Below, piece by piece: positions 1-12,524 of a stretch of 12,524 bases of DNA. The number at the start of each line of letters is the position of its first letter. Positions within the stretch are counted from its first letter, which is position 1. The stretch comes from an uncultured Armatimonadia bacterium (GTDB lineage Bacteria; Armatimonadota; Zipacnadia; Zipacnadales; JABUFB01). Made by a program: the position numbers and the translations under genes. The notes below the pieces were generated by a model. That model searched no databases, was not told the DNA's origin, and saw nothing but the letters and a program-made list of their open reading frames with translations. Where the stretch lies: contig CAYRFY010000184.1 in assembly GCA_964423635.1 (NCBI GenBank), positions 1 through 12,524 of the forward strand, in the 5' to 3' direction.

Positions 1-91
1 GGGGGGGTGAGGTGACGTGAATCGGCGCCTGCCCGGAACCTGCATAATCTGAGGATGTAGGCCGCCCTCCGGACGCTTACCGCCGGGTTTC

Positions 92-439
92 CTACCCTCC
101 GTGCATCCGCGTCTGGTCCTCGCGCCTGTCTTCCCGGTGGCGCATCTCCTCGCTCGGCCCTGCCACGACCGCCGCCGTGCCGCCTGCCCTCAGCCTGCCG
201 TCCATCGCGTCCAGGCGTCGCTCGATGCTATTGAGCCGCTCGAGGATGGCGGTCAGATGGGCGGAGAGCAGGTGGGTGTCGCACGAGAGCAGGTCGTCTT
301 CCAGTTGTCGCGCGGCGTTCCGCTGCTGCAACTCCTCCATGCGCCCCAGATGCCTCTGGTGGTTGCGCAGTGCCAGCCCAACGCAGGCACCGATGGCTAC
401 CATCATCATCGGAAGCAACATCACGAAGGCATCATCCAT
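92..439 (-). CDS. Small single-pass membrane protein, paralogue 1. It has an N-terminal TM helix (FVMLLPMMMVAIGACVGLAL) followed by a coiled coil (RMEELQQRN...HLTAILERLNSIERRLDAMDGRL). PspB-like in architecture, tentative.
   Basis: The ORF track frame 92..481 was trimmed to an internal ATG at 437-439 (complement), which is preceded by a strong Shine-Dalgarno GGAGGTGA (complement of 445..452) with a 5-nt spacer. Starting at MDDAFVML aligns it with the N-terminus of the neighbouring paralogue. A hydrophobic helix followed by an amphipathic helix matches the PspB layout (TM, then a His/aromatic residue, then a coiled coil). The stop TAG is at 92-94. Confidence 0.6.
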   Translation of the reverse strand: MDDAFVMLLPMMMVAIGACVGLALRNHQRHLGRMEELQQRNAARQLEDDLLSCDTHLLSAHLTAILERLNSIERRLDAMDGRLRAGGTAAVVAGPSEEMRHREDRREDQTRMHGG

Positions 440-444
440 GCACG

Positions 445-452
445 TCACCTCC
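445..452 (-). promoter_or_regulatory. Shine-Dalgarno (GGAGGTGA) for the small membrane protein gene at 92..439.
   Basis: The reverse complement of tcacctcc sits 5 nt upstream of the ATG. Confidence 0.5.
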
Positions 453-477
453 GCACCCTGACGCGGGCCCACCGTGC

Positions 478-825
478 TCAATGCTGCTGGGTCTGCCTCT
501 CCCGCCTGTCCGTCCGCTCGAAGAGCTCATCGCTCCGGCCGGTCGACGTCGTGGCGGCGCATCCCTGCCTCCCGTTACCGTCAGTCTCGCTGAGGCGCTG
601 CTCGATGCTGTTGAGCCGTTCCAGGATCGCGGCGAGGTGCGCCGACTGCAGGTCGCCGTCGTAGCCGAGCAGCGCACGGTCGCTCTCGGCCGCCCGGTCC
701 AGGTTCCGCTGGCGCAACTCTTCCATCCGCTCGCAGTGCCGTGTCCAGTGGCGGAAGGCGGCGAACCCGAGCACCCCGACGATCGCCACGATCGGTATCA
801 TGACGCCAATCACGTCGACAGCCAT
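478..825 (-). CDS. Small single-pass membrane protein, paralogue 2 (MAVDVIGVMIPIVAIVGVLGFAAF, then RMEELRQRN...HLAAILERLNSIEQRLSETDG). PspB-like in architecture, tentative.
   Basis: ATG start at 823-825 (complement) with an upstream GGAGAGGA-like SD. The stop TGA is at 478-480. The protein shares the core MEEL(Q/R)QRN ... L(L/Q)SAHL(T/A)AILERLNSIE(R/Q)RL with the gene at 92..439. The DNA of the two cores is also clearly related, for example ctcgatgctattgagccgctcgaggatggcgg versus ctcgatgctgttgagccgttccaggatcgcgg. Confidence 0.65.
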   Translation of the reverse strand: MAVDVIGVMIPIVAIVGVLGFAAFRHWTRHCERMEELRQRNLDRAAESDRALLGYDGDLQSAHLAAILERLNSIEQRLSETDGNGRQGCAATTSTGRSDELFERTDRRERQTQQH

Positions 826-881
826 ATGCCCGTCCTCTCCGCCCTCCGGGGCCGGTTATGTCGCGCTTGCCCCGCGCCAAC

Positions 882-1826
882 TCACGTGGCGCGAGACCAC
901 ACGTCTTTGTCGGTGAAGATCCGCCGGAGCGTGGTGAGTTCCCCGTGGTCGAGCCAGATGCCCTCGCAGATCCGGCAGCGGTCCACATAGCAGCTACCGT
1001 CTTCGGCATACGCGCGGCTGTCCATCTCGGTGTGGTCTACCGGACAGACGATCTCTCCCTCGCGGTCGGTATCCGGCATGCGAATCGCGGAGCTGAGTTG
1101 TCGCTCCCAGGCGTTGAGCCATTGCTGGGAGACGTCCATGAGCAGCGACAGCGCTCCGGTATCCATCCAGATGCCGCCGCAGGTGCTGCAGTGGTCCACG
1201 GCGGGGTCCTCGTCCAACGCTATGCCACATCCGGAGGCGGTTCGCGAGCTCAGGGGATTGTCGCAGCGCGGGCAGAGCATGGCTCCCCGCCGGTCCTGCA
1301 GGACGGCACCGCAGCCCCAGCAGGTGGGCGCCCCCACGTAGTTCTCCACACCACAATCCTGGCACGGGAACTTCTGGATCAAAGAGACCACGTGCCGCAG
1401 GCGCCGGCGACGGGAGGTCGGTAGCGTGGGTGTCGACGCCTCGGGCTGCGCTCCGGTGGCGGCGGGCCTCGCCGGGGTGAACCTGGCGGCGAGTGCCGCC
1501 AGCTCCCCGTCATCCACCCAGATACCCTTGCACTGCGGGCACGCGTCGAGCTTGATCTCCGGGGAGTGGGGGTACGAGAACTCGTACAGGGCCACGCCGC
1601 AGCGCGGGCAAGATGCATCTTCCCGCGCCGCCGGGGCCCCGGCAGGGCCGGGGACATACTCGGCCTCGGCCGACCCGGAGCCCGAGCCGCCGGAGCGGAT
1701 CACCTGCCTGAGTTCGTCGGCGTCGAACCAGATGCCCCCGCAGGCGTCGCAGCCGTCCAGTGCGACGGCGCCGATCCTCTCCTGTCGCAGGGGCACGCCC
1801 TCACCGCAGCGTGGGCAGTTGGCCAC
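882..1826 (-). CDS. Cys-rich tandem zinc-ribbon protein. It has four repeats of CPxC-x(12-20)-CxxCxGIWxDxxEL (zf-TFIIB-like, PF13453-type ribbon) plus a central CQDCG...CWGCG ribbon. No TM segment, so predicted cytoplasmic.
   Basis: GTG start at 1824-1826 (complement) with a GAGGGA SD about 8 nt upstream. The stop TGA is at 882-884. The four repeats read CPRCGEGV...CDACGGIWFDADEL, CPRCGVAL...CPQCKGIWVDDGEL, CPRCDNPL...CSTCGGIWMDTGAL and CPVDHTEM...CRICEGIWLDHGEL. Composition and codon bias are consistent with a coding region. Confidence 0.8.
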   Translation of the reverse strand: MANCPRCGEGVPLRQERIGAVALDGCDACGGIWFDADELRQVIRSGGSGSGSAEAEYVPGPAGAPAAREDASCPRCGVALYEFSYPHSPEIKLDACPQCKGIWVDDGELAALAARFTPARPAATGAQPEASTPTLPTSRRRRLRHVVSLIQKFPCQDCGVENYVGAPTCWGCGAVLQDRRGAMLCPRCDNPLSSRTASGCGIALDEDPAVDHCSTCGGIWMDTGALSLLMDVSQQWLNAWERQLSSAIRMPDTDREGEIVCPVDHTEMDSRAYAEDGSCYVDRCRICEGIWLDHGELTTLRRIFTDKDVWSRAT

Positions 1827-1889
1827 TTTGGATCCCTCGCTTCACGTTGTGGATGGCGCGGCGCGAGTCCGGACACGCCCGCAGAGATG

Positions 1890-4778
1890 CTATCGCCGGC
1901 GCAGCACGAACACGCACCCCGACTCGATGTTCGGCACCTTCAGGATCGCCCGGCCCGCTTCCACCGTGCAGGCGAAGGGCTGCTCGCCCTCCGGGGTGAC
2001 CTCGAAGCATTCCACATCCTCAATGTAGTCCGGCAGCCCCACGGTGATCGAGACGTTCTTGGCCGGCTCGATCTCCGGCGGCTCCGGCTTGGAGGCCGGA
2101 ATGTGGTTGGCGGCGGTGACGACGATCGTGTCCGGTCCGCACAGCAGGCTGCTCACGGCCACCCGCGGCTTGGGCCAGGACTCATCACGGGCGACGCCCG
2201 TGGGCACCTCCCCGGCGTCGCAGGAGACCAAGTCCACCGGCGTGCCCAGGAGCAGATCGCCCTCGATGTGCTCGATCAGACGGTTGGTGGCGGCGATCTC
2301 GGCCGCAAACTCATCATTGAGCTGCCAGCCACCGGCGCCCGCCGAGTACACCCAGCTCGTCAGCCCCTTCATCCCACAGCCGATGGCCTGGACCACATTC
2401 TGCCGCCATTCGGCCGGCACCGGTCCCCGCGCACCCTTCGGCACTCCCTGACCGGTCTTCCAGCCGTACGCCTCCAGACAGGCGTACATGCGGTTCGGCG
2501 TGCCGCACAGCCGGGCGTAGGACAGGCTCTCACGCACGTAGGCGTGGTCGGCGCCGTAGTACGTCACGGGATACGGGTCGAAGCAGGCGATGTCGGCGAA
2601 GCGCCCGTATACGCACCAGTTCAGCGGTCGCACCGTGCCGTTCATCACGATCCACGAGGCGGCCTGCGGGGAGAACCGCTGCAGCAGCTCCTGCCAGCCG
2701 GACTGCGCCAGCCTCCGGGCATGGTAGCCCAGCCCTGTCGGGTAGCCACCGCCACGATTGTCGTGGGCGTCGGGCTCGTCGGGCCCCATCAGATACGCCA
2801 CCCGCGGGTGGAGGTCGAACATGCCGCCGGTGGCGCTGGTCAAAAGCCCGTACCGCTCGCAGACCTCCTGGGAGTGTGCGTGCCACATGGCCAGGTTCAT
2901 GTGCATCTGCTCGCACAGCTCGGGGGGCACGTGGATCGAGCTGCGCGGGAACAGCCAGGGCAGGACGCGGAACTGCGCCGCCACCTGCCTCCCGGAGCCG
3001 CTGGTGGCCGTCACCACATGGTACCCACCCGCCGTCAGCGGCGCCTCAAGTCTTGCCACGAGCAGCGCCACCCCGCCGGGGAAGTCGGCCCCGTAGCGAC
3101 GGACCTGCCTCAGCGGCTCGCCGTCCAGAGACAGTGCCTCGGCCGCCCGTATGCCCGGGGCATGCTGCCGCAGGTACACAAGCAGCGATTGCCCGTCCGG
3201 GCCGGTGGTCACATAGTCCACGGAGAGCTCCGCGGAGGCGTACGGAACGGTGGCCTCCGTCCTCGCGCCGCTTTCGGTCACCAGCGTCACTCGGGCCGCC
3301 TCGCCCTCCGGCCGGCGCCGGAAGCGCACCAGCACCTGGCCGCACTCCCCGGCCTCCAGCGTCCGCGGCCGCACTCGGTACCACACCACGCCCCGCGCGT
3401 CCCAGGCGTCGGAGACCAGATCCACATAGGTCTCATCAACCGGGACATCATTGAGCAGGAGGTCGGCGATGCGCACCGTCTGGGTCCCCGTATTTCGGAC
3501 GGCCAGGCGCAGAGAGCCGAAGTCCTCGTGCTCCTGATACAGCCGCTGCAGGCCCGCGAAGACGAGGCCCGTATCCTGCCCCTTCTGGCGGCCCTCCACG
3601 ACTTGCGACGCCGCCGGTGGGGCCGGGTCGGGCAGGTACTCGGCGGCCAGGACGGTGAGCTCCCGGCCGGGAGCCAGGTCCGGGCGCTCGGTCCAGGAGA
3701 TGTCGCCGCCGCCGGACAGCGCCACCGTCCGCAGGAGCAGTCTGCCCCCGCTCCGGGGCGCCACGCGCAGCTCGTGCACGCCGTCGGCGGGAGCCCTGCC
3801 TAGCTCTGAGAAGACGGTGCCACGGCGCTCGATGCCGGAGGCGGCGTCGAACGAAAGCACCTCCTCACCATCCCACAGCACCGCGCACTCTCGCGGCGAT
3901 TGCGGGTCGGATGAGAACTCCAACCGCACCATCAGCGGCCCCGACGCGCCCTGGGTCCGCACGAAGGTGGCAAGCGACAGGGGTGCCTGGCCCTCGCTGA
4001 GGTACTCCCTGCTCAGCGGGAACCCGCCGGTCTCGTTCAGTACCAACAGCGGGTTCTCGCCGGGGGGCGTGAGCCAGCCGTCGGCCTGCTCATAGTAGTG
4101 AGGGGCGCGCGCCCGTGGAGGGTCGGAGCAATCCAGCGCCGGGCTTCGCCAGCCCTGTGCGGAACGCAGTTGCGCCCATTGCGCCTTCAGCTCCGATTGC
4201 GGGTCCGCGGCCGCGAATAGCGCCTCGCCCGTCTGCAGCTCTACCCGCAGCTCATCGACGATGTTCGATACATACGTCTCCAGGCCGCTGTAGTTGTCCA
4301 ACACCAGGCGCAGCCATAGCTCACCGCCCCCCAACAGGCCCCCGGCCCGCTCCGTCTCCAGGGTCAGCGGCCCCGCCTGCCAGCCGTTGGCGTCGCCCTC
4401 CTGGCCCTTGCTGTCGGCCACCTGCTCCCAGTCCAGACCGTTGGCCGAGGCCCACAGCGTCGTCTGGCCGCCCAGGTGGCGGGCATTTGACCGCTGCGCG
4501 ACCCGTACGGACACTGCGGTGATCGCTCGCTCGCCGTGGAAGCGGTAAGTCAGCGTCCGGCGGCGGGCCGGGCCCTGTGTCTGCAGCGAGCCCGCCGTCC
4601 AGATTTCAGTCCCCGTATTGCTGAGGATCGCGTCGGTGAGGCATCTAGGGGTGGAGAAGTCGTCCTCGTAGACAAAGCTCCCCTCCTCATCGGGCCGGAT
4701 AGCGATGCCCGGCTCTGCGGCATGGCTGACCGGACTGAGCAGAAGCAGAAGAAGACCGACGGCCTGGCTTGCTCTCAT
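1890..4778 (-). CDS. Large secreted multidomain protein of about 962 aa with an N-terminal Sec signal peptide. The function is unresolved. Its C-terminal third is possibly a glycoside-hydrolase-like TIM-barrel region, and it has beta-sandwich-like N-terminal and C-terminal domains.
   Basis: The track ORF 1890..4883 was trimmed to an internal ATG at 4776-4778 (complement) that begins a classic signal peptide, MRASQAVGLLLLLLSPVSHA|AEP. The 35 codons upstream are Arg/Gly-rich and not protein-like. The stop TAG is at 1890-1892. Third-position GC bias is strong. The overlapping 745-aa plus-strand ORF is an antisense artefact. Confidence 0.8.
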   Translation of the reverse strand: MRASQAVGLLLLLLSPVSHAAEPGIAIRPDEEGSFVYEDDFSTPRCLTDAILSNTGTEIWTAGSLQTQGPARRRTLTYRFHGERAITAVSVRVAQRSNARHLGGQTTLWASANGLDWEQVADSKGQEGDANGWQAGPLTLETERAGGLLGGGELWLRLVLDNYSGLETYVSNIVDELRVELQTGEALFAAADPQSELKAQWAQLRSAQGWRSPALDCSDPPRARAPHYYEQADGWLTPPGENPLLVLNETGGFPLSREYLSEGQAPLSLATFVRTQGASGPLMVRLEFSSDPQSPRECAVLWDGEEVLSFDAASGIERRGTVFSELGRAPADGVHELRVAPRSGGRLLLRTVALSGGGDISWTERPDLAPGRELTVLAAEYLPDPAPPAASQVVEGRQKGQDTGLVFAGLQRLYQEHEDFGSLRLAVRNTGTQTVRIADLLLNDVPVDETYVDLVSDAWDARGVVWYRVRPRTLEAGECGQVLVRFRRRPEGEAARVTLVTESGARTEATVPYASAELSVDYVTTGPDGQSLLVYLRQHAPGIRAAEALSLDGEPLRQVRRYGADFPGGVALLVARLEAPLTAGGYHVVTATSGSGRQVAAQFRVLPWLFPRSSIHVPPELCEQMHMNLAMWHAHSQEVCERYGLLTSATGGMFDLHPRVAYLMGPDEPDAHDNRGGGYPTGLGYHARRLAQSGWQELLQRFSPQAASWIVMNGTVRPLNWCVYGRFADIACFDPYPVTYYGADHAYVRESLSYARLCGTPNRMYACLEAYGWKTGQGVPKGARGPVPAEWRQNVVQAIGCGMKGLTSWVYSAGAGGWQLNDEFAAEIAATNRLIEHIEGDLLLGTPVDLVSCDAGEVPTGVARDESWPKPRVAVSSLLCGPDTIVVTAANHIPASKPEPPEIEPAKNVSITVGLPDYIEDVECFEVTPEGEQPFACTVEAGRAILKVPNIESGCVFVLRRR
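4719..4778 (-). other. Signal peptide (about 20 aa, AXA-type cleavage after SHA) of the secreted protein.
   Basis: Basic N-terminus MRASQ, then a poly-Leu hydrophobic core, then SPVSHA-AEP. Confidence 0.6.
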
Positions 4779-4810
4779 AGCAAAGACCTCGCGGGACACG
4801 ATAGCACGAA

Positions 4811-4833
4811 GCCCCGGCGCACGGCACCGGGGC
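4811..4833 (-). other. GC hairpin (gccccgg, 9-nt loop, ccggggc) in the intergenic region between the kinase gene and the secreted-protein gene. It could be a kinase terminator or an attenuator-like element.
   Basis: The 7-bp perfect stem is read directly. On the minus strand it is followed by ttcgtgctat, which is only weakly T-rich, and it lies about 40 nt upstream of the secreted-protein start. Confidence 0.2.
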
Positions 4834-5149
4834 CTGCCAAAGAGCGTTCGCCCCCGGCCACCGCGACTCCTCCGCGGCGCCACGTCGGTGTCCGTCGGGG
4901 TCCGCCGAGCCTGTCGGCAAAGCCTGTGCGCCGCCTCGGATACGCGCCGGCGGGCGACGTCCCGCGGGTAAGCGCGTCCTCAGTGCGGCGGCAACACATT
5001 CACAGGATCATGACGACACTCTTCCTACGCGTTTCGAGCGATGGCAACGAGGCACGTAGGCGGCCCAATTGACTTAGCCGACCGGCTACGCCGTCGCCGG
5101 CGTCGCGCTGTGTGGCTTCGTGCGCCGCCGCGCGGCGCGGCCGCCGACG

Positions 5150-6811
5150 CTACTTGCCGGCCACCGCCTCCGTGATGGCTTCCACGAGCCGGGTCATGTC
5201 GAAGGGCTTGCGCAGCACTCCGCAGGCTCCGAGACGCTGAAGCTCCTCGTCGAGGCCCTCTTCGCCCCGGCCTGTGATGGCCAGGACCGGCGGGGGACTG
5301 CCCACGCGGCGGGCCCAGGCCAGCACATGCCTGCCGCCGCCGGCGGACATGCCGACATCTGTCACGACAAGGTCGAACTCCGCGGCCTGAAGCAGCGCCC
5401 AGGCCTGGTGAGCGTTGTCGGTGGACAGCGTGTGGAAGCCCGCCAGGCGGAGAATCCGAGTCACCGCATGCAGAAACTGCGGCTGGTCCTCCACAAGCAG
5501 TACCCGCAGCCCCGGGGGCGCCGCCTCAAGAGCCTGCAGCAGCGCCTCCTCGGCCTCGCCGGCCTGCACACATTCGCCGGTGCAGGCGGAGAACCGCAGT
5601 TCGAAGGTCGTCCCCGTCCCGAGCTCGCTATCCACCTCCAGGCTCCCCTGGTGCCGCAGGACGATGTCCCGCGAGACGGCCAGTCCGAGACCACTGCCCC
5701 CGACCGGCGTCGACTGGGCCTCTCCCTTGGTGGTGAAGTAGGGCGAGAACACTTGGGGCAGGTGCTCCGGCGCAATTCCGGTTCCGGTATCCGAGACGGC
5801 GACGACAACCTGCTCGCTCCCGTCGGGCGCCGTTTCGCGCCAACTCCGCACGTCCAGGATCCCGCCATCGGGCATGGCCTGACAGGCGTTGAGAAACAGG
5901 TTGAGGAACACTTGCTCCAGTTGCCCGCGGTCGCCCTCCACGAGGTTTTGGCGGCTTCCGGCGTCGCGCTGAATCGCGATACCCGTGTCGCGGGTGTGAT
6001 GGGCCGCCAAGGACAGCGCCGCATCCACGGCTTCGTCCAGGTCCAGGGGAACGCGCCGGGGCTCATCGGGCCGCGAGAAGGTGGTGATCTTGCGGCACAG
6101 ATCGCCGCCACGGGGAACCAGGTCACGGACGGTGTCCACCAGTTCCTCGTAAGCCTCCTGCGTCTGCACGTACCTGGTGAGGTCGGCTGTCATCACCAGG
6201 CCCGAAAGCAGGTTATTGAGCTCATGAGTCACGGCGGCCGCCAGGCGTCCCAGGGAGGCCTGACGCTGCAGGCTTTCCATCTGGTAGCGGGCGGTCACGT
6301 CGGTCAGCAGTACCGCAACCGCACCGTCGGCCAGGAGAAACGCGCGGGATCGGCACCACTTGCCTGTGCCAGAGAAGCGCAGCTCCGCCTCGGACGGACC
6401 TGGAGCCGACAGCGCCCGCATTACAAGGGCCGACAGCTCCTGGGCCTCCTCGCCGTACAGGTCCTCAATGCGCTTGCCCGCGGCGTCGGTGTCCAGCCGG
6501 CCGGTGAGGGCCTCCCAGGCCGAATTCCAGCCCTGCAGCACCAACTCGCCCGAGCCGGCGAAACTGCGCCCCGGAGCGAACTGAGCGTAGCCTTCATCTA
6601 TCATCGAAAGCAGCCAGGAGGCCTGCGGGAGCGCCCCCGACAGCCGCAACGGCGAAACTGTGCCGCCGGGCGAAGCCGAAGACCCGCCACCGGGCCCCCG
6701 CTTCCGATCGGCAAGCAGGCCCAACAGCGCCGCCAGCAGCGCGAATGCGGGCAGGGCCATATGCTCCGCTGTCGTGTAGCCCGCGGTACAATCCAGCGCA
6801 CTCATCATCAT
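5150..6811 (-). CDS. Hybrid sensor histidine kinase/response-regulator. Domain order is an N-terminal TM anchor, a PAS-like domain, HisKA (H-box AAAVTHELNNLLSGL), HATPase_c (N, G1 DTGTGI and G2 GSGLGLAV boxes), then a C-terminal REC domain (LLVED...DLVVTDVGM...LAITG...LRKPF).
   Basis: All canonical kinase and receiver motifs are read from the translation. The stop TAG is at 5150-5152. The track ORF start at 7018 was rejected because its first roughly 69 residues are Arg/Cys/Gly-rich junk. The start was placed at the ATG triplet MMM (6803-6811), immediately before the hydrophobic anchor MALPAFALLAALLGLL. An alternative start is the ATG at 6758-6760. Confidence 0.85.
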   Translation of the reverse strand: MMMSALDCTAGYTTAEHMALPAFALLAALLGLLADRKRGPGGGSSASPGGTVSPLRLSGALPQASWLLSMIDEGYAQFAPGRSFAGSGELVLQGWNSAWEALTGRLDTDAAGKRIEDLYGEEAQELSALVMRALSAPGPSEAELRFSGTGKWCRSRAFLLADGAVAVLLTDVTARYQMESLQRQASLGRLAAAVTHELNNLLSGLVMTADLTRYVQTQEAYEELVDTVRDLVPRGGDLCRKITTFSRPDEPRRVPLDLDEAVDAALSLAAHHTRDTGIAIQRDAGSRQNLVEGDRGQLEQVFLNLFLNACQAMPDGGILDVRSWRETAPDGSEQVVVAVSDTGTGIAPEHLPQVFSPYFTTKGEAQSTPVGGSGLGLAVSRDIVLRHQGSLEVDSELGTGTTFELRFSACTGECVQAGEAEEALLQALEAAPPGLRVLLVEDQPQFLHAVTRILRLAGFHTLSTDNAHQAWALLQAAEFDLVVTDVGMSAGGGRHVLAWARRVGSPPPVLAITGRGEEGLDEELQRLGACGVLRKPFDMTRLVEAITEAVAGK

Positions 6812-7163
6812 TGCCGTCCGTCCCCATCGTCTTGCGTAGTCGGCTCGCGGACAGGCCCGAGAAGCGCCGGGAGCGCTCCGCAGTGACCTGCCTCCATACC
6901 CTGCGCAGCAATTTCGTGCCAAAACGGGCTTCGCGGATTCCACCCGGCACCCAGGGCGTGTCGGGGAAGTCTCGTACGGGGGGGCGGCGCTCGCGACGTC
7001 GGCGCTCCCCGATGACATGAGCTGGGCCGGCCGAGCCTTTCGGCCGCACCCAAGGAACCGAACACTCCCGCCGCCTTCACAAGGGGCCCCCGCCGAACTA
7101 CAAGGAATACCGAGGACGCTATGCGCCGCTGCACACTTATCGGCCCTTGGTGGCGCGCAGGAC

Positions 7164-7194
7164 TTGTCTCTCGCGCGGCGAAACAGCCTATAGT
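7164..7194 (+). promoter_or_regulatory. Candidate sigma-70-type promoter for the PspA-like operon: -35 TTGTCT (7164-7169) and -10 TATAGT (7189-7194).
   Basis: An AT-rich TATAGT hexamer stands out in a roughly 70% GC background about 37 nt upstream of the ATG at 7231. The 19-bp spacer is longer than optimal. Confidence 0.25.
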
Positions 7195-7230
7195 CCGGGG
7201 TGCGGTCGGCACCGAACCATCAGCGGGGAC

Positions 7231-7821
7231 ATGCGAATGGATCGACTCAGGCGCCTGTGGCGTGCGCTGCTGCGGTTTCTCACCGGAGAGGATGAGCCGG
7301 TTGCCGTTCGCCCCGAGGCCGCCGAGCGCGAACTCAGCGCTCTGCGGAACATCGCCGCGCTAGCCGTGGCCCAGGCTCAGCGCGCCGAACTGGAGTTGCG
7401 CGAAGCGTTGGCCGACCCCTCAACGATGCCGGGCGAACTGGACAGTCTGATGCTCCAGCTCACGGAGCTGCGCGACCGCGCGCGCCGGGACGTCGTGGCC
7501 TACAGAGAGCATCAGCGCGGCGTGGCCGAGGCCCTGGAGCGTCTGGGGGAGGCGACCCGCGCCGCCGAGGTCGGTCGTCAGCGCGAGGAGATGCGGCGTT
7601 TCCTGGCCCGGTCTGAAGCGGCCATGGATCTCGAAGCTCTCCAGGCCATCGAGGACGAAGCCAGAGCCGAAGCCGCGCGCCTCGATTTCCTGCAGCAATT
7701 GGAGGCCGGTCACGATCCCGGAATCCACCGTCCCGAGCCCCGGGAACCCGGTGACCTCAGGCAGAGGGCACAGGCCCTCGTGGACCAGAGCGCCTTTTCT
7801 GACCTGCTGGGAAATGACTGA
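7231..7821 (+). CDS. PspA/IM30 (Vipp1)-like coiled-coil protein of about 196 aa. Family assignment is tentative.
   Basis: The N-terminus MRMDRLRRLWRALLRFLTGEDEP matches the PspA N-terminal amphipathic-helix pattern DRLxRxxRAxLxxLxxxAEDP as I recall it. The rest is an uninterrupted Ala/Glu/Arg/Leu-rich alpha-helical coiled coil. The track ORF began at a TTG at 7147, but I placed the start at the first ATG (7231). The ATG at 7237 is an alternative, since GGGGA lies at 7225-7229. The stop TGA is at 7819-7821. Confidence 0.6.
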   Translation: MRMDRLRRLWRALLRFLTGEDEPVAVRPEAAERELSALRNIAALAVAQAQRAELELREALADPSTMPGELDSLMLQLTELRDRARRDVVAYREHQRGVAEALERLGEATRAAEVGRQREEMRRFLARSEAAMDLEALQAIEDEARAEAARLDFLQQLEAGHDPGIHRPEPREPGDLRQRAQALVDQSAFSDLLGND

Positions 7822-7939
7822 ACGCCTCACGCCCGGACACACGGTCCGGTTCGGAAGCCGTGGCTAACGTTTGGCACGCGACGATCTACATAGCTGTTGG
7901 GACCCCGCTACTGACGGACGCGAAAGGGGGCTCTCTAGT

Positions 7940-8737
7940 ATGGACCTCTTGGCATGGTGGAACGTCGTCTTCGTCGTCCCCATCGGCCTGTCGGTGCTCT
8001 ACCTGATACTCAGCGCCACCGGCATGGGCGGCGACACCGGGCACGACCATGATCTCGAGACCCAGATGGACCACGACGTGGACCTCACCCATGATGTGGA
8101 CATGGACCACGACGTAGACATCGACCACGACGTGGACATGGATCATGACGTGGACGTCGACCACGACGTGGAGACGCTGCATGGCGTCGACGCGCACCAC
8201 ACGGTGGCCGCGGGCGATGCCCACGACTCGCTGGCTCATGACTTCCACCATGAGGCCGACACTCCCCTGTGGCTCCGGGCCCTGTCGGTGATCGGGTTCG
8301 GCAAGGTGCCGGTGTCGATCATCATGACGTGCCTCAGCGTCATCTTCGGTGTCGTCGGGCTGGCGGCCAACAGTCTCTTCGAGCACGGCCTGAGCGGGAA
8401 GCTGCCGCCCACGGTGTACTTCTGGCCCTCCTTCGCGCTGGCCGCCGTGGTCTCGCTGTCTTTCACCGGGAGCTTCGCTCGCCTGATGGCCCGCTACATG
8501 CCCACCAGCGAGACCTATGCCGAGACGCCCCAGGACTTGGTGGGGCGGCTGGGAACCGTGGTCTTCGCCCTGAGGGAGGGCGAGAAGGGTGTCGTGGACG
8601 TGAAGGATCACGGTGGCACCTGGCACCGTATTGCCGCTCAGCCTGTGTCCGGCGACATTCCCAAGGAGAGTGAGGTCATCGTGGTTCGTTACCACCGCGA
8701 CGGCGACTATTACGATGTGACGGTGTCGCCACTGTAG
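7940..8737 (+). CDS. NfeD-like (YqiJ/YuaF-type) membrane protein with three predicted TM helices and a C-terminal OB-fold beta-barrel. It carries an unusual His/Asp-rich repetitive loop between TM1 and TM2.
   Basis: The C-terminal sequence LVGRLGTVVFALREGEKGVVDVKDHGGTWHRIAAQP...EVIVVRYHRDGDYYDVTV fits the NfeD C-terminal OB-fold signature. The hydrophobic helices are LLAWWNVVFVVPIGLSVLYLILSA, LSVIGFGKVPVSIIMTCLSVIFGVVGLAA and FWPSFALAAVVSLSFTGSF. The ATG at 7940 is preceded by AAAGGGGG. The track's TTG at 7871 adds a non-protein-like leader. The stop TAG is at 8735-8737. The gene lies immediately upstream of a flotillin gene, which is the classic NfeD-SPFH pairing. Confidence 0.8.
   Translation: MDLLAWWNVVFVVPIGLSVLYLILSATGMGGDTGHDHDLETQMDHDVDLTHDVDMDHDVDIDHDVDMDHDVDVDHDVETLHGVDAHHTVAAGDAHDSLAHDFHHEADTPLWLRALSVIGFGKVPVSIIMTCLSVIFGVVGLAANSLFEHGLSGKLPPTVYFWPSFALAAVVSLSFTGSFARLMARYMPTSETYAETPQDLVGRLGTVVFALREGEKGVVDVKDHGGTWHRIAAQPVSGDIPKESEVIVVRYHRDGDYYDVTVSPL
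8065..8172 (+). repeat. Six copies of an 18-bp in-frame tandem repeat (consensus atggaccacgacgtggac) encoding (M/L/I/V)(D/T)HDVD x6 inside the NfeD-like gene.
   Basis: Read directly: atggaccacgacgtggac / ctcacccatgatgtggac / atggaccacgacgtagac / atcgaccacgacgtggac / atggatcatgacgtggac / gtcgaccacgacgtggag. Confidence 0.9.
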
Positions 8738-8888
8738 GCGTTCGCCGTCCTTCATCCCCGTCCTCGCGACCGCGGGCCTTCAGCCCGCAGGACGTAGGCC
8801 GGCCGTCGTCGCCGTTCCTTGCCCCACCCGGAAGTCCGGCGGGAATCCAGGTTCTCCGCCTTGTATCTTGCATATCTCACGCCGCAAT

Positions 8889-8895
8889 AGGAGGG
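8889..8895 (+). promoter_or_regulatory. Shine-Dalgarno AGGAGGG for the flotillin gene (7-nt spacer to the GTG at 8903).
   Basis: Read directly from aataggagggacagaccGTG. Confidence 0.55.
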
Positions 8896-8902
8896 ACAGA
8901 CC

Positions 8903-10819
8903 GTGGCACTGGCAATCGGCATGATCTTCGTCGGTGCGTTCCTGATCTTCTGGCCGGCCAGCGCGCTGCAGGGGCCGACCCAGGTGATCTTGATGACCGT
9001 CGGCGCGATTGTACTGCTCGTGGCCGCCGTGGTGGTCATCATCGCCAAGCTCTACCAGAGGGCCAGCGCCAACGAGGCCTTCGTCAAGACAGGCATGGGA
9101 GGGCCGAAAGTCGTACTGGACGGCGGCGCCATCGTCATCCCCGTCGTCCACAAGGTTGTCCCGGTGCGCCTGGAGACCATGAAGCTCGAGGTTGAGCGCG
9201 CGGGTGAGGATGCCTTGATCACCAAGGATAACCTGCGTTGTGACATCAGGGCCGAGTTCTACATCAAGGTACAGGCGGTCAAGGACGACATCCTCAACGC
9301 CTCCCGCTCCCTGGGCGGGCGCTCCATCGACGCCGGTGCCGTGCGCGACCTCGTCTTCGAGAAGCTCGTGTCCGCCCTGCGCTCCGTGGCCGCCACCCGT
9401 GACCTGTCCACTCTCCACACCGAGCGCGACGACTTCGCCAACGCCGTGTCGCAGCTCGTGCGCGAGGACCTCAAGTCCAACGGCCTCACCCTCGAGTCCG
9501 TGACCATCTCCCGTCTTGACCAGACGGACACCAAGCGCCTCAACGAGAACAACGTCTTCGACGCCCAGGGCCTGCGGAAGATCGCCGAGATCACTCAGAA
9601 GGCCCGGGTCGAGCGCAACCTCTACGAGCGAGACGCTGAACGGGCGATCGCCAATAAGGACGTGGAGACCCGCAAGCAAATCCTCGACCTGGACCTCGAT
9701 CAGGCCAATGCCGAGGCCACTCAGGCCGCCGAGGTGGCCAAGATCCGGGCCGAGCGCGAACAGGAGGCCGCGACGTATCAGATCGAGCAGCGCCGCCTGA
9801 TGGAGACGGCCGAGATCGACAAGGACCGCCAGGTGCAGCAGCGCGGCGTGGACCGCGACCTGCAGGTGGAGTCGGCCAAGGTCGAGGCCGAAAAGGCCCT
9901 CATCGCCAAGCAGCAGGAGCGCCAGACCACCGATATCGCCCGCAACCAGGCCATCGAAACCAAGGACGTCGAGCGCGTCAGGACCGTCGAGATCGCCAAG
10001 CGTGAGCAGTCCATCGCCGTGGCCGAGGCCGAGCAGCGCCGGGCCCTGGCCGAGCAGCAGCAGCTCACGGCCGAGGCCGAGCGCGAAGCCGCTCAGCAGG
10101 AGGTCATCACCGTCGAGCAGGTCGCCGAGGCCGACCGCACCAAGCGAGTGCAGGTCATCAGCGCCGAGCAGCAGGCGGAGCAGGAGAAGATCAAGCGGCA
10201 GATGGAAGCCGATATCGAGGCCTACCAGGCCGCAAAGATCGCCGAGGGTGAGCAGCAGGCCGCCGTCCAGATGGCCGTGGCGATCCGCACCAAGGCCGAG
10301 GCCGAAAAGGACGCCGCCACACTGCGCGCTACCGGTGAGCAGGCCCAGCAGATGGTGCCCGTCAACGTCACCCGTGAGCAGGTCTCCGTCGACGCCGCTC
10401 GCGTGCAGGATGTCGAAGCCGCCAGGGTCCAGGTACTCCGCAATGAGCTCTCAGCGAAGGCCGAGTACGAGCAGATCTCCGTCGAGCTGGAGAAGGCCCT
10501 CGCCGAGATCGAGGCCCGCAAGGAAGTGGGCGTCGCCTTCGCCAACAGCTTCGGGGACGCGTTCAGCAATGCCGACGTGGACCTCTACGGCTCGCCCGAG
10601 ACGCTGGCCACAGCCATGAGCGCCTTCGGCAAGGCCGCCGGCATCGGGGCCTTCATGGATGGTCTGAACCGGAGCATGCCGGACGAGACCATGTCCACCA
10701 TCCAGAGCCTCCTACAGCGACTGGCACCCGGCGTCGCCTCTGCCCCCACGCCGGCCACTGAGGAAGATAAGCCGGAGACCGACGAGCAGGCCGAGGACAC
10801 GCAGCCCGCACCGGAGTAG
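8903..10819 (+). CDS. Flotillin-like SPFH/Band-7 protein (YqiK/FloT family) of 638 aa. It has an N-terminal membrane anchor, an SPFH domain, then a long Glu/Ala/Gln-rich coiled coil and a C-terminal tail.
   Basis: The N-terminal block YQRASANEAFVKTGMGGPKVVLDGGAIVIPVVHKVVPVRLETMKLEVERAGEDALITKDNLRCDI closely parallels the conserved start of enterobacterial YqiK and Bacillus FloT flotillins. It is followed by EA-rich heptad repeats (AEAEQRRALAEQQQLTAEAEREAAQQE...). GTG start with a strong SD. The stop TAG is at 10817-10819. Confidence 0.9.
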   Translation: MALAIGMIFVGAFLIFWPASALQGPTQVILMTVGAIVLLVAAVVVIIAKLYQRASANEAFVKTGMGGPKVVLDGGAIVIPVVHKVVPVRLETMKLEVERAGEDALITKDNLRCDIRAEFYIKVQAVKDDILNASRSLGGRSIDAGAVRDLVFEKLVSALRSVAATRDLSTLHTERDDFANAVSQLVREDLKSNGLTLESVTISRLDQTDTKRLNENNVFDAQGLRKIAEITQKARVERNLYERDAERAIANKDVETRKQILDLDLDQANAEATQAAEVAKIRAEREQEAATYQIEQRRLMETAEIDKDRQVQQRGVDRDLQVESAKVEAEKALIAKQQERQTTDIARNQAIETKDVERVRTVEIAKREQSIAVAEAEQRRALAEQQQLTAEAEREAAQQEVITVEQVAEADRTKRVQVISAEQQAEQEKIKRQMEADIEAYQAAKIAEGEQQAAVQMAVAIRTKAEAEKDAATLRATGEQAQQMVPVNVTREQVSVDAARVQDVEAARVQVLRNELSAKAEYEQISVELEKALAEIEARKEVGVAFANSFGDAFSNADVDLYGSPETLATAMSAFGKAAGIGAFMDGLNRSMPDETMSTIQSLLQRLAPGVASAPTPATEEDKPETDEQAEDTQPAPE

Positions 10820-10851
10820 ACGCCGGCAGCGACGCCACCAGGCCACGATCG

Positions 10852-10885
10852 CGGCGACGGCTCCCTGCTACGGGAGCCGTCGCCG
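10852..10885 (+). terminator. Putative intrinsic terminator of the PspA-like/NfeD/flotillin operon. The stem cggcgacggctccc with loop tgcta and gggagccgtcgccg is followed by GTTCTTG.
   Basis: A 13 to 14-bp perfect GC-rich inverted repeat lies 33 nt after the flotillin stop codon. The T-tract is short (ttcttg), as is common in high-GC genomes. Confidence 0.45.
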
Positions 10886-11120
10886 GTTCTTGATAAACTG
10901 TGGGCTGTGTTGCAGGGGAAAGCCAATCGCCGTCGCCGTTGTCGTGGTCCCTCTCCCGCGGCTCGTATTCTGAGTGTCGGATGGGCCGGGAGAGAGGGCG
11001 CCGTCCCTGTCGTTTCCCAGCCTCTCCCCAGCCGCTCCCCTGCCTCAGTTGCCACCGCCCCTCGTCTCTGGTAAACTCGCCGGGCTGTCCTCGCACCGCC
11101 GCCGACCTGCTTTGGAGACC

Positions 11121-11126
11121 AGGAGA
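11121..11126 (+). promoter_or_regulatory. Shine-Dalgarno AGGAGA for the aminotransferase gene (7-nt spacer to the ATG at 11134).
   Basis: Read directly from ggagaccaggagatcgagttATG. Confidence 0.55.
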
Positions 11127-11133
11127 TCGAGTT

Positions 11134-12524
11134 ATGACCGCTGCCGCAGACCTCAGTTTCGCAGATCTGATGAACGACCATTCCGGAGAGATGGCCACCG
11201 CCATGCGGGCGGGCAGCGAGTATCTCACCTCCGGCTCCACAGCCGAGCTCCTGGCGCAGGTGGGGCGCACCGTGCCCTCCGTGCCCGCAGCGCGGTTCCC
11301 CGACAAGAGGTGGTTTCAGCTCTCGTACGGCCGCGAGGTCAATGACAGGCCCAACGAACTGCTGGTGGGCAAGGGACTCTTCTACCTTACCGAACAGGGC
11401 AGGCTCTATCTCGACTGCACCGGCGGGCACTACCAGATGACCTGGGGCTACGATCATCCGCAGTTGCACGCCCTGCTGCTGGACGGCATCCAGCGGGGCA
11501 TCGTCTGGGACAATCACAGCAACATCCCCTCGGCGCCGGTCAAACGCCTGGCCCAGAAGCTGGTGGAGGTCGCCAATCCGGGGGCTGATATGCGCCTCGT
11601 TCAGACCGATGGTGACAGGCTCAATACGGTACTGCTCGGTACCGCCACCGGCACCGTGGCCTGCGCCGCCGCCATGAAGATCCAACTCCTGCACTATTCC
11701 CGTGTCAAGCCCAATCAGGGCGCGCCGGTCTTCGTGGTCCTGGACGGCAACTACCACGGCACCGACATGTTCGCTCAGCACCTGCGGGGCATGTGGCCGG
11801 GGTTGTTTGCCAATGTGCGGATCGTCACCGTGGAGCCCAATGACCCGGAAGAGCTCCGGCAGGCCGTCGCCACACACGGCCGACGCATCGCCGGTTTCTG
11901 GGCCGAGCCGATCATGATGAACCGCGAGGCCATCGAGGTGCAGCCCGAGTATTTGCGCCTCGCTCGCGAGCTGTGCGATGAGACCGGCGCGCTCATGGCC
12001 ATCGACGAGATCCAGACGGGCTTTTGGTACCCCGAGGTCTTCTACACCAAGCGCCTCGGCATCGAGCCAGATTTCATCGTCCTGGGCAAAGGCCTCACCG
12101 CCGGCCTGCACCCGCTCTCGGCCCTCCTCTACCGGGGCAAGCTGGACATCCTGGAGCAATATGACGCCATCAGCACCAATGGCAATGCGGCCCTGGCCGC
12201 GTACGTGGCTCTCGGATGCATCGAGCTGATCCAGCGCAACGCACAGCACATCGGGCAGATGGGGGAGAGGTTCCATACGGGGATGCGGGCTCTGGCGGCG
12301 AGATTCCCGGAGTTGCTGGTCGAGGCCCGGGGCGTCGGACACTTGTCGGGCCTCAAGTTCCAAAGCCGCGAGGACGCCCTGGGCTTCCACCGCCAGATCG
12401 TGGAGGAGGGCTACTGGCTCCGGGCCCATGCCTATCACGAGGGGCACAGCACGATCCTTACCAAGTTCGCCCTCCCGATGGACGAAGAAGTGGCCGACCA
12501 TACGCTGGCCAAGATCGGGAGCGT
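11134..12524 (+). CDS. Class-III pyridoxal-phosphate-dependent aminotransferase (acetylornithine/GABA/omega-transaminase family). The 3' end is truncated by the window edge (463 codons or more, no stop seen).
   Basis: The ORF is open from the ATG at 11134 to the window end, with strong G/C third-position bias. The class-III signature DEIQTGF is at about residue 291 and the PLP-lysine motif VLGKGLTAG at about residue 319. The N-terminal glycine-rich substrate-loop pattern is LYLDCTGGHYQMTWGYDHPQL. It is absent from the ORF track, apparently because the track lists only stop-terminated ORFs. The 638-aa minus-strand ORF 10585..12501 that overlaps it is its antisense shadow. Confidence 0.85.
   Translation, partial: MTAAADLSFADLMNDHSGEMATAMRAGSEYLTSGSTAELLAQVGRTVPSVPAARFPDKRWFQLSYGREVNDRPNELLVGKGLFYLTEQGRLYLDCTGGHYQMTWGYDHPQLHALLLDGIQRGIVWDNHSNIPSAPVKRLAQKLVEVANPGADMRLVQTDGDRLNTVLLGTATGTVACAAAMKIQLLHYSRVKPNQGAPVFVVLDGNYHGTDMFAQHLRGMWPGLFANVRIVTVEPNDPEELRQAVATHGRRIAGFWAEPIMMNREAIEVQPEYLRLARELCDETGALMAIDEIQTGFWYPEVFYTKRLGIEPDFIVLGKGLTAGLHPLSALLYRGKLDILEQYDAISTNGNAALAAYVALGCIELIQRNAQHIGQMGERFHTGMRALAARFPELLVEARGVGHLSGLKFQSREDALGFHRQIVEEGYWLRAHAYHEGHSTILTKFALPMDEEVADHTLAKIGS

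Follow-up and report, generated by a model that had tools for sequence, protein, structure and literature searches.

Why should a membrane protein that is paired with a bacterial flotillin carry, between its first two transmembrane (TM) helices, a long segment rich in histidine and aspartate but free of lysine and arginine? This question is raised by a contig of an uncultured Armatimonadia bacterium (CAYRFY010000184.1, assembly GCA_964423635.1), the 12,524 nucleotides of which are referred to here as the window (positions 1 to 12,524; G+C content 67.6%). The gene concerned, a yqiJ-type NfeD gene, lies at positions 7940-8737 of the plus strand (+) and encodes 265 amino acids (aa) plus a stop codon. 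What the NfeD partners of bacterial flotillins do is little understood. A preliminary description of the window had taken the segment for a special insertion, exposed to the periplasm and possibly sensing divalent cations or acid. According to the comparison with homologues, the segment is what normally links TM1 and TM2 in YqiJ-type (DUF1449/NfeD2-like) membrane proteins; the protein belongs to the known YqiJ/NfeD family as an ordinary member and is encoded in a known type of operon. The identity of the protein, the family-wide occurrence of the linker and its predicted disorder are, taken together, held with high confidence. The linker itself appears to be undescribed: none of the papers found in the literature mentions it, none joins NfeD with the term histidine-rich, and the sole paper on DUF1449 is a study of Shewanella.

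Protein Family and Fold

The YqiJ_N family of Pfam (PF21001) matches aa 68-176 of the protein with 30.4 bits (cut-off 23; E 4.9e-7), and Escherichia coli YqiJ is found by BLASTP at E 1e-7, aligned from TM2 to the C-terminus with 18% identity. The AlphaFold2 model, which was computed from an alignment of 131 sequences, has a mean predicted local distance difference test score (pLDDT) of 79.6, with values above 90 outside the loop, and arranges the protein in the order TM1 (aa 6-26), disordered segment (35-104), short helix (110-117), TM2 (125-150), TM3 (157-186) and five-stranded barrel (within 204-262). Its best counterparts among the folds of the PDB, as ranked by Foldseek at a probability of 1.00, are 3WWV (1510-C; TM-score 0.81 on the target, root-mean-square deviation 2.4), 2K14 (YuaF) and 3CP0, all of them NfeD OB-fold domains. 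Likewise, a sequence-profile search of the PDB led to 2K14 (E 0.013). The score for the Pfam family NfeD itself (PF01957), 13.7 bits at E 0.075, stayed below the cut-off of 29.1, which is consistent with earlier findings that proteins of the YqiJ/YuaF branch have little sequence similarity to NfeD (PMC2636767).

Along the gene, TM1 is encoded at 7958-8023 (+; aa 7-28) and is modeled as a helix with pLDDT above 90, preceded by an acidic N-terminal tail without Lys or Arg which fits an N-out orientation. The His/Asp-rich linker follows at 8024-8260 (+; aa 29-107) and passes into a conserved, basic amphipathic segment in front of TM2 (TPLWLRALSVIGFGK; 8261-8305, +), which contains the modeled helix 110-117 as well as R113 and K122, both invariant among close homologues. 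TM2 (aa 123-150) and TM3 (aa 157-186) are modeled as a hairpin (8306-8497, +), the two helices of which are joined by about 6-8 aa. The C-terminal part (aa 198-265), encoded at 8531-8734 (+), forms a beta-barrel of five strands, and this OB-fold of the NfeD type was recovered by AlphaFold2, Foldseek and the profile search alike.

The ATG at 7940, with the Shine-Dalgarno-like sequence AAGGGGG upstream, is regarded as the true start because the N-termini of homologues read M[DE]LL.W. The TTG at 7871, with which the gene opens in the list of open reading frames (ORFs; 7871-8737, +), was dropped since the M[DE]LL.W of the homologues matches ATG 7940. That the coding frame lies on the plus strand is indicated by a G+C content at third codon positions (GC3) of 0.865 and by the differences from a near-identical locus (L002, 97% identical to the window in the conserved part), 33 of 49 of which fall at codon position 3. 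A minus-strand ORF of 289 aa (7886-8755) was therefore rejected as a shadow ORF.

Composition and Local Evolution of the Linker

The peptide to which the preliminary description had drawn attention, running from GHDHD to HHEAD, is real: it is encoded at 8039-8260 (+), corresponds to aa 34-107 (74 aa) and holds 15 His and 26 acidic residues (23 Asp, 3 Glu) with no Lys or Arg at all. The interval given for it, 8029-8265, brackets this peptide without being aligned to codons, and the complete lack of Lys and Arg was rightly noticed, whereas the numbers of about 20 His and about 30 Asp/Glu were too high. The length of roughly 90 residues suits not the peptide but the entire stretch between TM1 and TM2 (aa 29-122, 94 aa), which includes R113 and K122 beside TM2. 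Both its location between TM1 and TM2, as modeled by AlphaFold2, and the assignment of the protein as an NfeD-type partner of a flotillin, on account of the PF21001 match, the OB-fold and the yqiK-like neighbor, were borne out.

Compared with the rest of the protein, the loop stands out in its content of His (binomial P 1e-10) and Asp (P 2e-14) and in the lack of Lys and Arg (P 0.003). This composition is due to an 18-nucleotide tandem repeat at 8069-8172 (+), detected by Tandem Repeats Finder with 5.8 copies and 76% matches, which encodes DHDVD[LMIV]. Asp and Glu are never adjacent in the loop and alternate strictly with other residues at lags 2, 4, and 6. The pLDDT drops below 50 at residues 35-49 and 57-104, and the computed net charge of the loop changes from -24.6 at pH 7.5 to -11.6 at pH 5.5. 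When the loop peptide alone was compared with a set of 5.8 billion proteins, no significant match was obtained, which is explained by its low complexity.

The comparison with L002 further illustrates how such a linker changes. Exactly one 18-nucleotide unit of the window is missing in L002, and nonsynonymous changes affect 9 of 73 codons in the loop and 5 of 158 in the rest of the protein, with the character of the loop being kept. The 18-nucleotide repeat is the source of the length polymorphism of the linker, which drifts in length as units are gained and lost in frame. The chemistry of the linker, in which His and Asp/Glu alternate with residues that are small or hydrophobic and Lys and Arg are practically missing, is maintained by selection.

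Occurrence of the Linker in the YqiJ Family

Relatives were collected in two ways. A scan of loci, for which one genome per species was taken, yielded 12 loci, all from metagenome-assembled genomes (MAGs) of Armatimonadota. In addition, 1.84 billion representatives were searched with HMMER for matches to the protein without its loop (from TM2 onward), which brought up 1352 members of the family; linker statistics refer to the best 150 of these 1352, with 134 linkers being scored and 131 sequences aligned.

All seven full-length close homologues possess such a loop, and a DHD-phi-D loop is found in every Armatimonadota homologue with an intact N-terminus. In this phylum, the loops measure 77-160 aa and contain 0-1 Lys/Arg (11 loci); the loop of the window, which measures 83 aa when delimited in the same way, ranks among the shortest. 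Among the best 150 members of the family, the linker has a median length of 42-44 aa, and lengths extend from 12 to about 129 aa across the representatives. Per 100 aa, the 131 aligned representatives hold 16.4 His, 29.0 Asp/Glu and 0.5 Lys/Arg. Linkers entirely free of Lys and Arg occur in 97 of the 134 representatives, and 15 of the 134 are at least as long as that of the window, e.g., P0155, the 110 aa of which include 26 His and 45 Asp/Glu. E. coli YqiJ as well carries a short His/Asp linker (about 34 aa), which is free of Lys and Arg up to the basic residue before TM2, whereas the short NfeD protein YbbJ of E. coli has none. Since the relatives of YqiJ carry the linker and YbbJ does not, the loop of the window represents an expanded form of a family-typical linker.

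Consequently, the view of the loop as a unique insertion was given up, as the close homologues, the Armatimonadota loci and, typically, about 130 diverse family representatives show such linkers; a wide distribution of this kind was also what the preliminary description had named as the outcome that would refute the novelty of the feature. Its remark that short NfeD proteins have nothing comparable is correct for E. coli YbbJ but does not extend to the YqiJ branch.

Two further observations were made on the relatives. In L005, a run of N lies inside the repeat region of yqiJ (about 5800-5900) and the frame upstream is shifted, which suggests that the repeats are hard to assemble, and loop lengths derived from MAGs may thus be unreliable. 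Furthermore, the YqiJ proteins of L005, L006, L007, L010, L011, and L013 are extended past the OB-fold by a charged tail at the C-terminus, about 40-50 aa in length (e.g., SPLSDDAANARGRNRAGGVAGREDVQARG), which is not present in the protein of the window.

Membrane Topology

The distribution of basic residues around the TM helices points to the side of the membrane on which the linker lies. In the 131 aligned sequences, Lys and Arg together amount to 10.8 per 100 aa in the segment before TM2 and 15.6 after TM3, compared with 1.1 in the N-terminal tail and 7.1 in the TM2-TM3 loop. Counted per protein, 4.25 of these residues occur in the flanks before TM2 and after TM3 vs. 0.66 in the N-terminal tail and the TM2-TM3 loop, and 129 of the 131 sequences favor an orientation with the N-terminus outside and both the loop and the C-terminus inside (more Lys and Arg inside than outside). 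The C-terminus of E. coli YqiJ is reported to be annotated as inside on the basis of a global topology study.

The C-terminal domain provides a second line of evidence. The OB-fold of NfeD faces the cytoplasm and binds flotillin there, an interaction which was demonstrated for FloA-NfeD of Staphylococcus aureus only (PMC11222466). With a cytoplasmic OB-fold and three TM helices, the TM1-TM2 loop comes to lie on the cytoplasmic side as well. Based on the distribution of Lys and Arg, the three predicted TM helices and the cytoplasmic OB-fold, the linker is thus probably cytoplasmic.

The Gene Cassette

The yqiJ-type gene is the middle one of three genes on the plus strand. Downstream, at 8903-10819 (+), a yqiK-type flotillin gene encodes 638 aa with an SPFH/Band_7 domain (PF01145, E 4.4e-20, aa 54-236). 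With E. coli YqiK, this protein shares 37% identity across 449 aa (E 1e-78; aa 25-471 aligned), and it has the architecture expected of flotillins, namely an N-terminal TM anchor, the SPFH/Band_7 domain and a long coiled coil. Its score against the FloT equivalog of NCBIfam, 36 with a cut-off of 700, lies far under that limit and hence marks it as a YqiK-like flotillin and not as a FloT equivalog. A Band_7 gene lies immediately 3' of the yqiJ homologue in all loci with downstream DNA, and the two genes were found paired in the 12 related loci as well as in three contexts of greater distance.

Upstream, at 7234-7821 (+), a gene for an all-helical coiled-coil protein of 195 aa precedes yqiJ; its ORF is listed from TTG 7147, and the conserved start is near ATG 7234. 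Such a gene lies directly 5' of yqiJ and yqiK in every Armatimonadota locus with upstream DNA. The order coiled coil, yqiJ, yqiK is conserved across the 12 loci, whereas the flanking genes vary.

The AlphaFold2 model of the upstream protein, for which homologues from databases were used, shows helices at 2-16, 27-60, 66-130, 133-157 and 175-184. This layout, an amphipathic helix at the N-terminus (in relatives with the consensus MGIISWLRRIVADFF) followed by a hairpin and additional helices, is similar to that of PspA/Vipp1, and Foldseek ranked the Vipp1 structures 8QBR and 6ZVR first, weakly so at E 0.2. No match to PspA was obtained in the Pfam and PDB sequence searches, and hhalign gave a probability of 0.5% against E. 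coli PspA. In the distant context L018, the gene at the corresponding position matches PF04012 over its full length at E 0.009. The upstream protein may be a divergent PspA/Vipp1-like protein; operons of PspA, flotillin and YqiJ were described earlier (PMC11237479). In L016, another distant context, the gene upstream of yqiJ (that of P0155) is not a coiled-coil gene but a fragment-like Band_7 gene of 96 aa (5615-5905; PF01145, E 6.8e-5).

A terminator-like, GC-rich hairpin follows the yqiK stop codon at a distance of 33 nucleotides (10852-10885, +; 14-bp stem with 12 G-C pairs, weak T-tail), and no terminator-like sites were found between the three genes of the cassette. The hairpin is likely the end of the three-gene unit.

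Possible Functions of the Linker

What the linker does is a matter of weighing several readings. In view of its conserved properties, namely the alternation of His and carboxylates with small or hydrophobic residues, the lack of basic residues, the predicted disorder, the variable length and the position beside the flotillin face, its function could be the binding of cations, either metals or protons, which is considered possible but somewhat doubtful. Within this reading, the linker would share the membrane face with the SPFH/coiled-coil assembly of the flotillin and would act as a multivalent tether of low affinity for cations, with about -22 to -25 charges at pH 7.5. It might be neutralized and compacted once its His are protonated or divalent metals are bound, whereby candidate metals would be Zn, Ni, Co, Fe, or Mn via His and carboxylates, and Ca or Mg via carboxylates in relatives poor in His. 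Such a compaction could shift the spacing or packing of TM1 relative to the module of TM2-TM3 and OB-fold and thereby alter the assembly of YqiJ and YqiK. Alternatively, metal ions might be buffered or handed over at the microdomain. As a whole, i.e., including this supposed mechanism of a cation-binding tether, the explanation is regarded as the best one but is put forward tentatively, its chances falling slightly short of even.

Phenotypes of related genes weakly hint at a link to metals. In Shewanella, a knock-out of the YqiK homologue SO1377 lowered the free iron detectable by electron paramagnetic resonance (EPR) threefold, and the DUF1449 partner of SO1377 was proposed as a metallochaperone by the authors (PMC1468410). 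Moreover, the E. coli yqiJ deletion was among the silver-sensitive strains of a genome-wide screen (PMC6071238). Besides, not only the composition of the loops but also the order of their residues is conserved: relative to shuffles within loops, the motif HD[VILFMA][DEGH] is 7.5-fold and DxDxD 6.4-fold overrepresented, both ratios being inflated by repeat-derived sequences.

This inflation is one of several points which weigh against the binding of cations at a cytoplasmic linker. Both the phenotype in Shewanella and the sensitivity to silver are pleiotropic and indirect, and genes for metal transport, regulation or homeostasis adjoin the cassette in none of six contexts (the window and five public contigs). 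The length of the linker varies twofold within the phylum and its sequence is under relaxed constraint, both of which fit a passive spacer too. In addition, the family includes a linker practically restricted to Asp (P0116; 1 His, 23 Asp) and one composed of His and Gly (P0025; 15 His, 1 Asp). No single metal chemistry is therefore conserved, and the common denominator is that linkers are acidic or rich in His but never basic. Finally, the complete exclusion of Lys and Arg over a long segment would also be expected of a translocated, periplasmic loop. A carbonic anhydrase-like gene (Pro_CA_2) downstream in L016 is the sole metalloenzyme neighbor and a single occurrence.

Several of these points are shared by a serious rival, which is in itself rather unlikely: the linker could be a passive spacer or entropic bristle, i.e., a non-sticky polyanionic tether without a specific ligand. 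Lys and Arg would then be missing to avoid anionic lipids and basic juxtamembrane surfaces, and the content of His and Asp would largely be a chance product of the slippage-prone repeat GAC-CAC-GAC-GTG-GAC. Such a spacer would agree with the predicted disorder, with the wide range of lengths (77-160 aa in Armatimonadota, family-wide 12 to about 129 aa), with the indel of one unit between near-identical genomes and with a nonsynonymous rate that is higher in the loop than elsewhere in the protein. The variants with Asp only or with His and Gly only, as well as the absence of metal genes beside the cassette in the contexts examined, can be read in the same way. Nevertheless, the order of the His-Asp motif is kept in representatives that are only 30-40% identical elsewhere, and a mere anionic spacer would not need the approximately 16% His found family-wide. 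The fact that clades with different repeat units arrive at a similar chemistry further argues for selection on ligand-type residues.

A variant in which protons are the only ligand is quite unlikely. The linker would be a cytoplasmic pH switch, as His flanked by Asp titrate near neutral pH and acid would approximately halve the net charge; a collapsed loop, or amphipathic beta-strands on the membrane, would then gate the assembly of YqiJ and YqiK. The computed drop from -24.6 to -11.6 between pH 7.5 and 5.5 would suit such a switch, as would the strict i/i+2 alternation, which places Asp on one face and His, Val and hydrophobic residues on the other, and the context of the family in membrane-stress systems (PMC11237479). 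However, the pH of the cytoplasm is tightly buffered, Asp-only members could not be titrated in the physiological range, and AlphaFold2 gave no hint of beta structure.

Very unlikely, lastly, is the model of the preliminary description, in which a periplasmic or extracytoplasmic loop senses divalent cations or acid and couples external stress to flotillin assembly: although translocated segments typically lack Lys and Arg almost entirely, as the linkers do along 40-160 residues, the proton-motive force aids an efficient translocation of acidic segments, and His/Asp loops are familiar in the periplasm (e.g., ZnuA), three TM helices predicted with high confidence together with a cytoplasmic, flotillin-binding OB-fold force the loop inside, in agreement with the invariant R113 and K122 on the loop side of TM2, the bias of basic residues detailed above and an acidic N-terminal tail without Lys or Arg, which makes TM1 unlike an N-in signal anchor. 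The earlier placement, which is probably wrong, differed since the positive-inside rule had been applied to the tract free of Lys and Arg itself and not to its flanks.

Significance

The observation of the linker throughout the family and the argument on its topology are modestly useful and readily testable. A single oddity becomes a testable property of a family, with a conserved composition, a probable location on the cytoplasmic side and a length that varies by repeat slippage. If the cation-binding tether is true and metals or protons are bound, flotillin microdomains would be linked to ion homeostasis, a connection proposed in 2006 for Shewanella SO1376/SO1377 without a structural basis. 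The furthest-reaching version, according to which the YqiJ family carries a conserved, cytoplasmic and disordered His/Asp polyanion that binds divalent metals or protons, with many copies gathered beneath the YqiK assembly, and the flotillin microdomain serves as a compartment for metal buffering and hand-over or as a cation-gated scaffold, is considered unlikely. In that version, the effects of YqiK-family mutations on iron and oxidative stress would find a molecular explanation, and the number of repeats would tune the capacity of the tract. If no binding occurs, the loop would be an ordinary disordered spacer and the finding would be without further weight.

Further Features of the Window

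The remaining genes of the window flank the cassette. On the minus strand (-), two small paralogous genes in tandem, 92-481 and 478-825, overlap with their stop and start codons, and each product consists of one TM helix and a coiled coil with the common motif LLSAHLTAILERLNSIE[RQ]RL. They are followed by a gene at 882-1826 (-) for a protein of 314 aa with four zinc ribbons of the Zn_ribbon_TFIIB type (PF13453, E 5.5e-37) and by a gene at 1890-4883 (-), the product of which (997 aa) has a signal peptide-like N-terminus and zero Pfam matches. The gene at 5150-7018 (-), which diverges from the cassette, encodes a hybrid sensor kinase (PAS-HisKA-HATPase_c-receiver) and has no more than its 5' end in common with L002, the closest relative. 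Downstream, a gene similar to those of class-III (pyridoxal phosphate-dependent) aminotransferases, with the motifs DEIQTGF and GKGLT, begins at 11122 and runs off the end of the window (11122-12524, +). The minus-strand ORF at 10585-12501 (638 aa) was rejected as a shadow of this aminotransferase-like gene. A scan of the window with Rfam returned no matches.

Comparison With Known Systems

The chemistry of the linker is akin to that of metal-binding His/Asp loops, as had been pointed out before, in composition only. Tracts of the type (H-D/E)n occur in cytoplasmic loops of CDF/ZnT and ZIP proteins and of RcnA, in the periplasmic loop of ZnuA as well as in the tails of Hpn, HypB, and UreE, where their affinity for Zn, Ni, and Co is low to moderate. 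The likeness to these transporter and chaperone loops consists in a disordered segment of low complexity with His and Asp/Glu on a membrane protein. Homology to these families is lacking, since no Pfam or NCBIfam match to domains of metal transporters or metallochaperones (CDF, ZIP, RcnA, HypB, UreE, Hpn) was obtained at E values up to 10. Unlike CDF, ZIP, and RcnA proteins, the protein of the window has three TM helices and no transport domain, and its linker follows the pattern D-H-D-phi-D-x with an excess of Asp instead of (HX)n.

Among NfeD proteins, the C-terminal five-stranded OB-fold is shared with YuaF, the partner of FloT in Bacillus subtilis, and with the NfeD domains 1510-C/PH0471 of Pyrococcus horikoshii. 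YuaF, an NfeD2 protein, has three N-terminal TM helices and is the operon partner of an SPFH protein (PMC2636767). YbbJ, a short NfeD1a protein, differs from the protein of the window in its tightly spaced TM helices.

The closest parallel is provided by YqiJ and YqiK of E. coli (DUF1449, PF21001; NfeD2-type in the sense of Hinderhofer et al., 2009, PMC2636767). The gene order is the same, with yqiJ directly upstream of yqiK, and E. coli YqiJ shows the same layout of TM1, linker, TM2, TM3, and OB-fold. The two proteins differ in the linker, which comprises about 34 aa in E. coli and 79-94 aa with DHDVDx tandem repeats in the window. The cassette of the window further differs from E. coli yqiJK by the extra conserved coiled-coil gene upstream and by its host, a member of the Armatimonadota. 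Genes for a CesT/Tir chaperone or an AAA+ ATPase are not found in the window, unlike in the operons described by Ravi et al. (2024; PMC11237479). In common with those operons, the window pairs a YqiJ-type gene with a flotillin gene and has a gene for a helical coiled-coil protein upstream of them.

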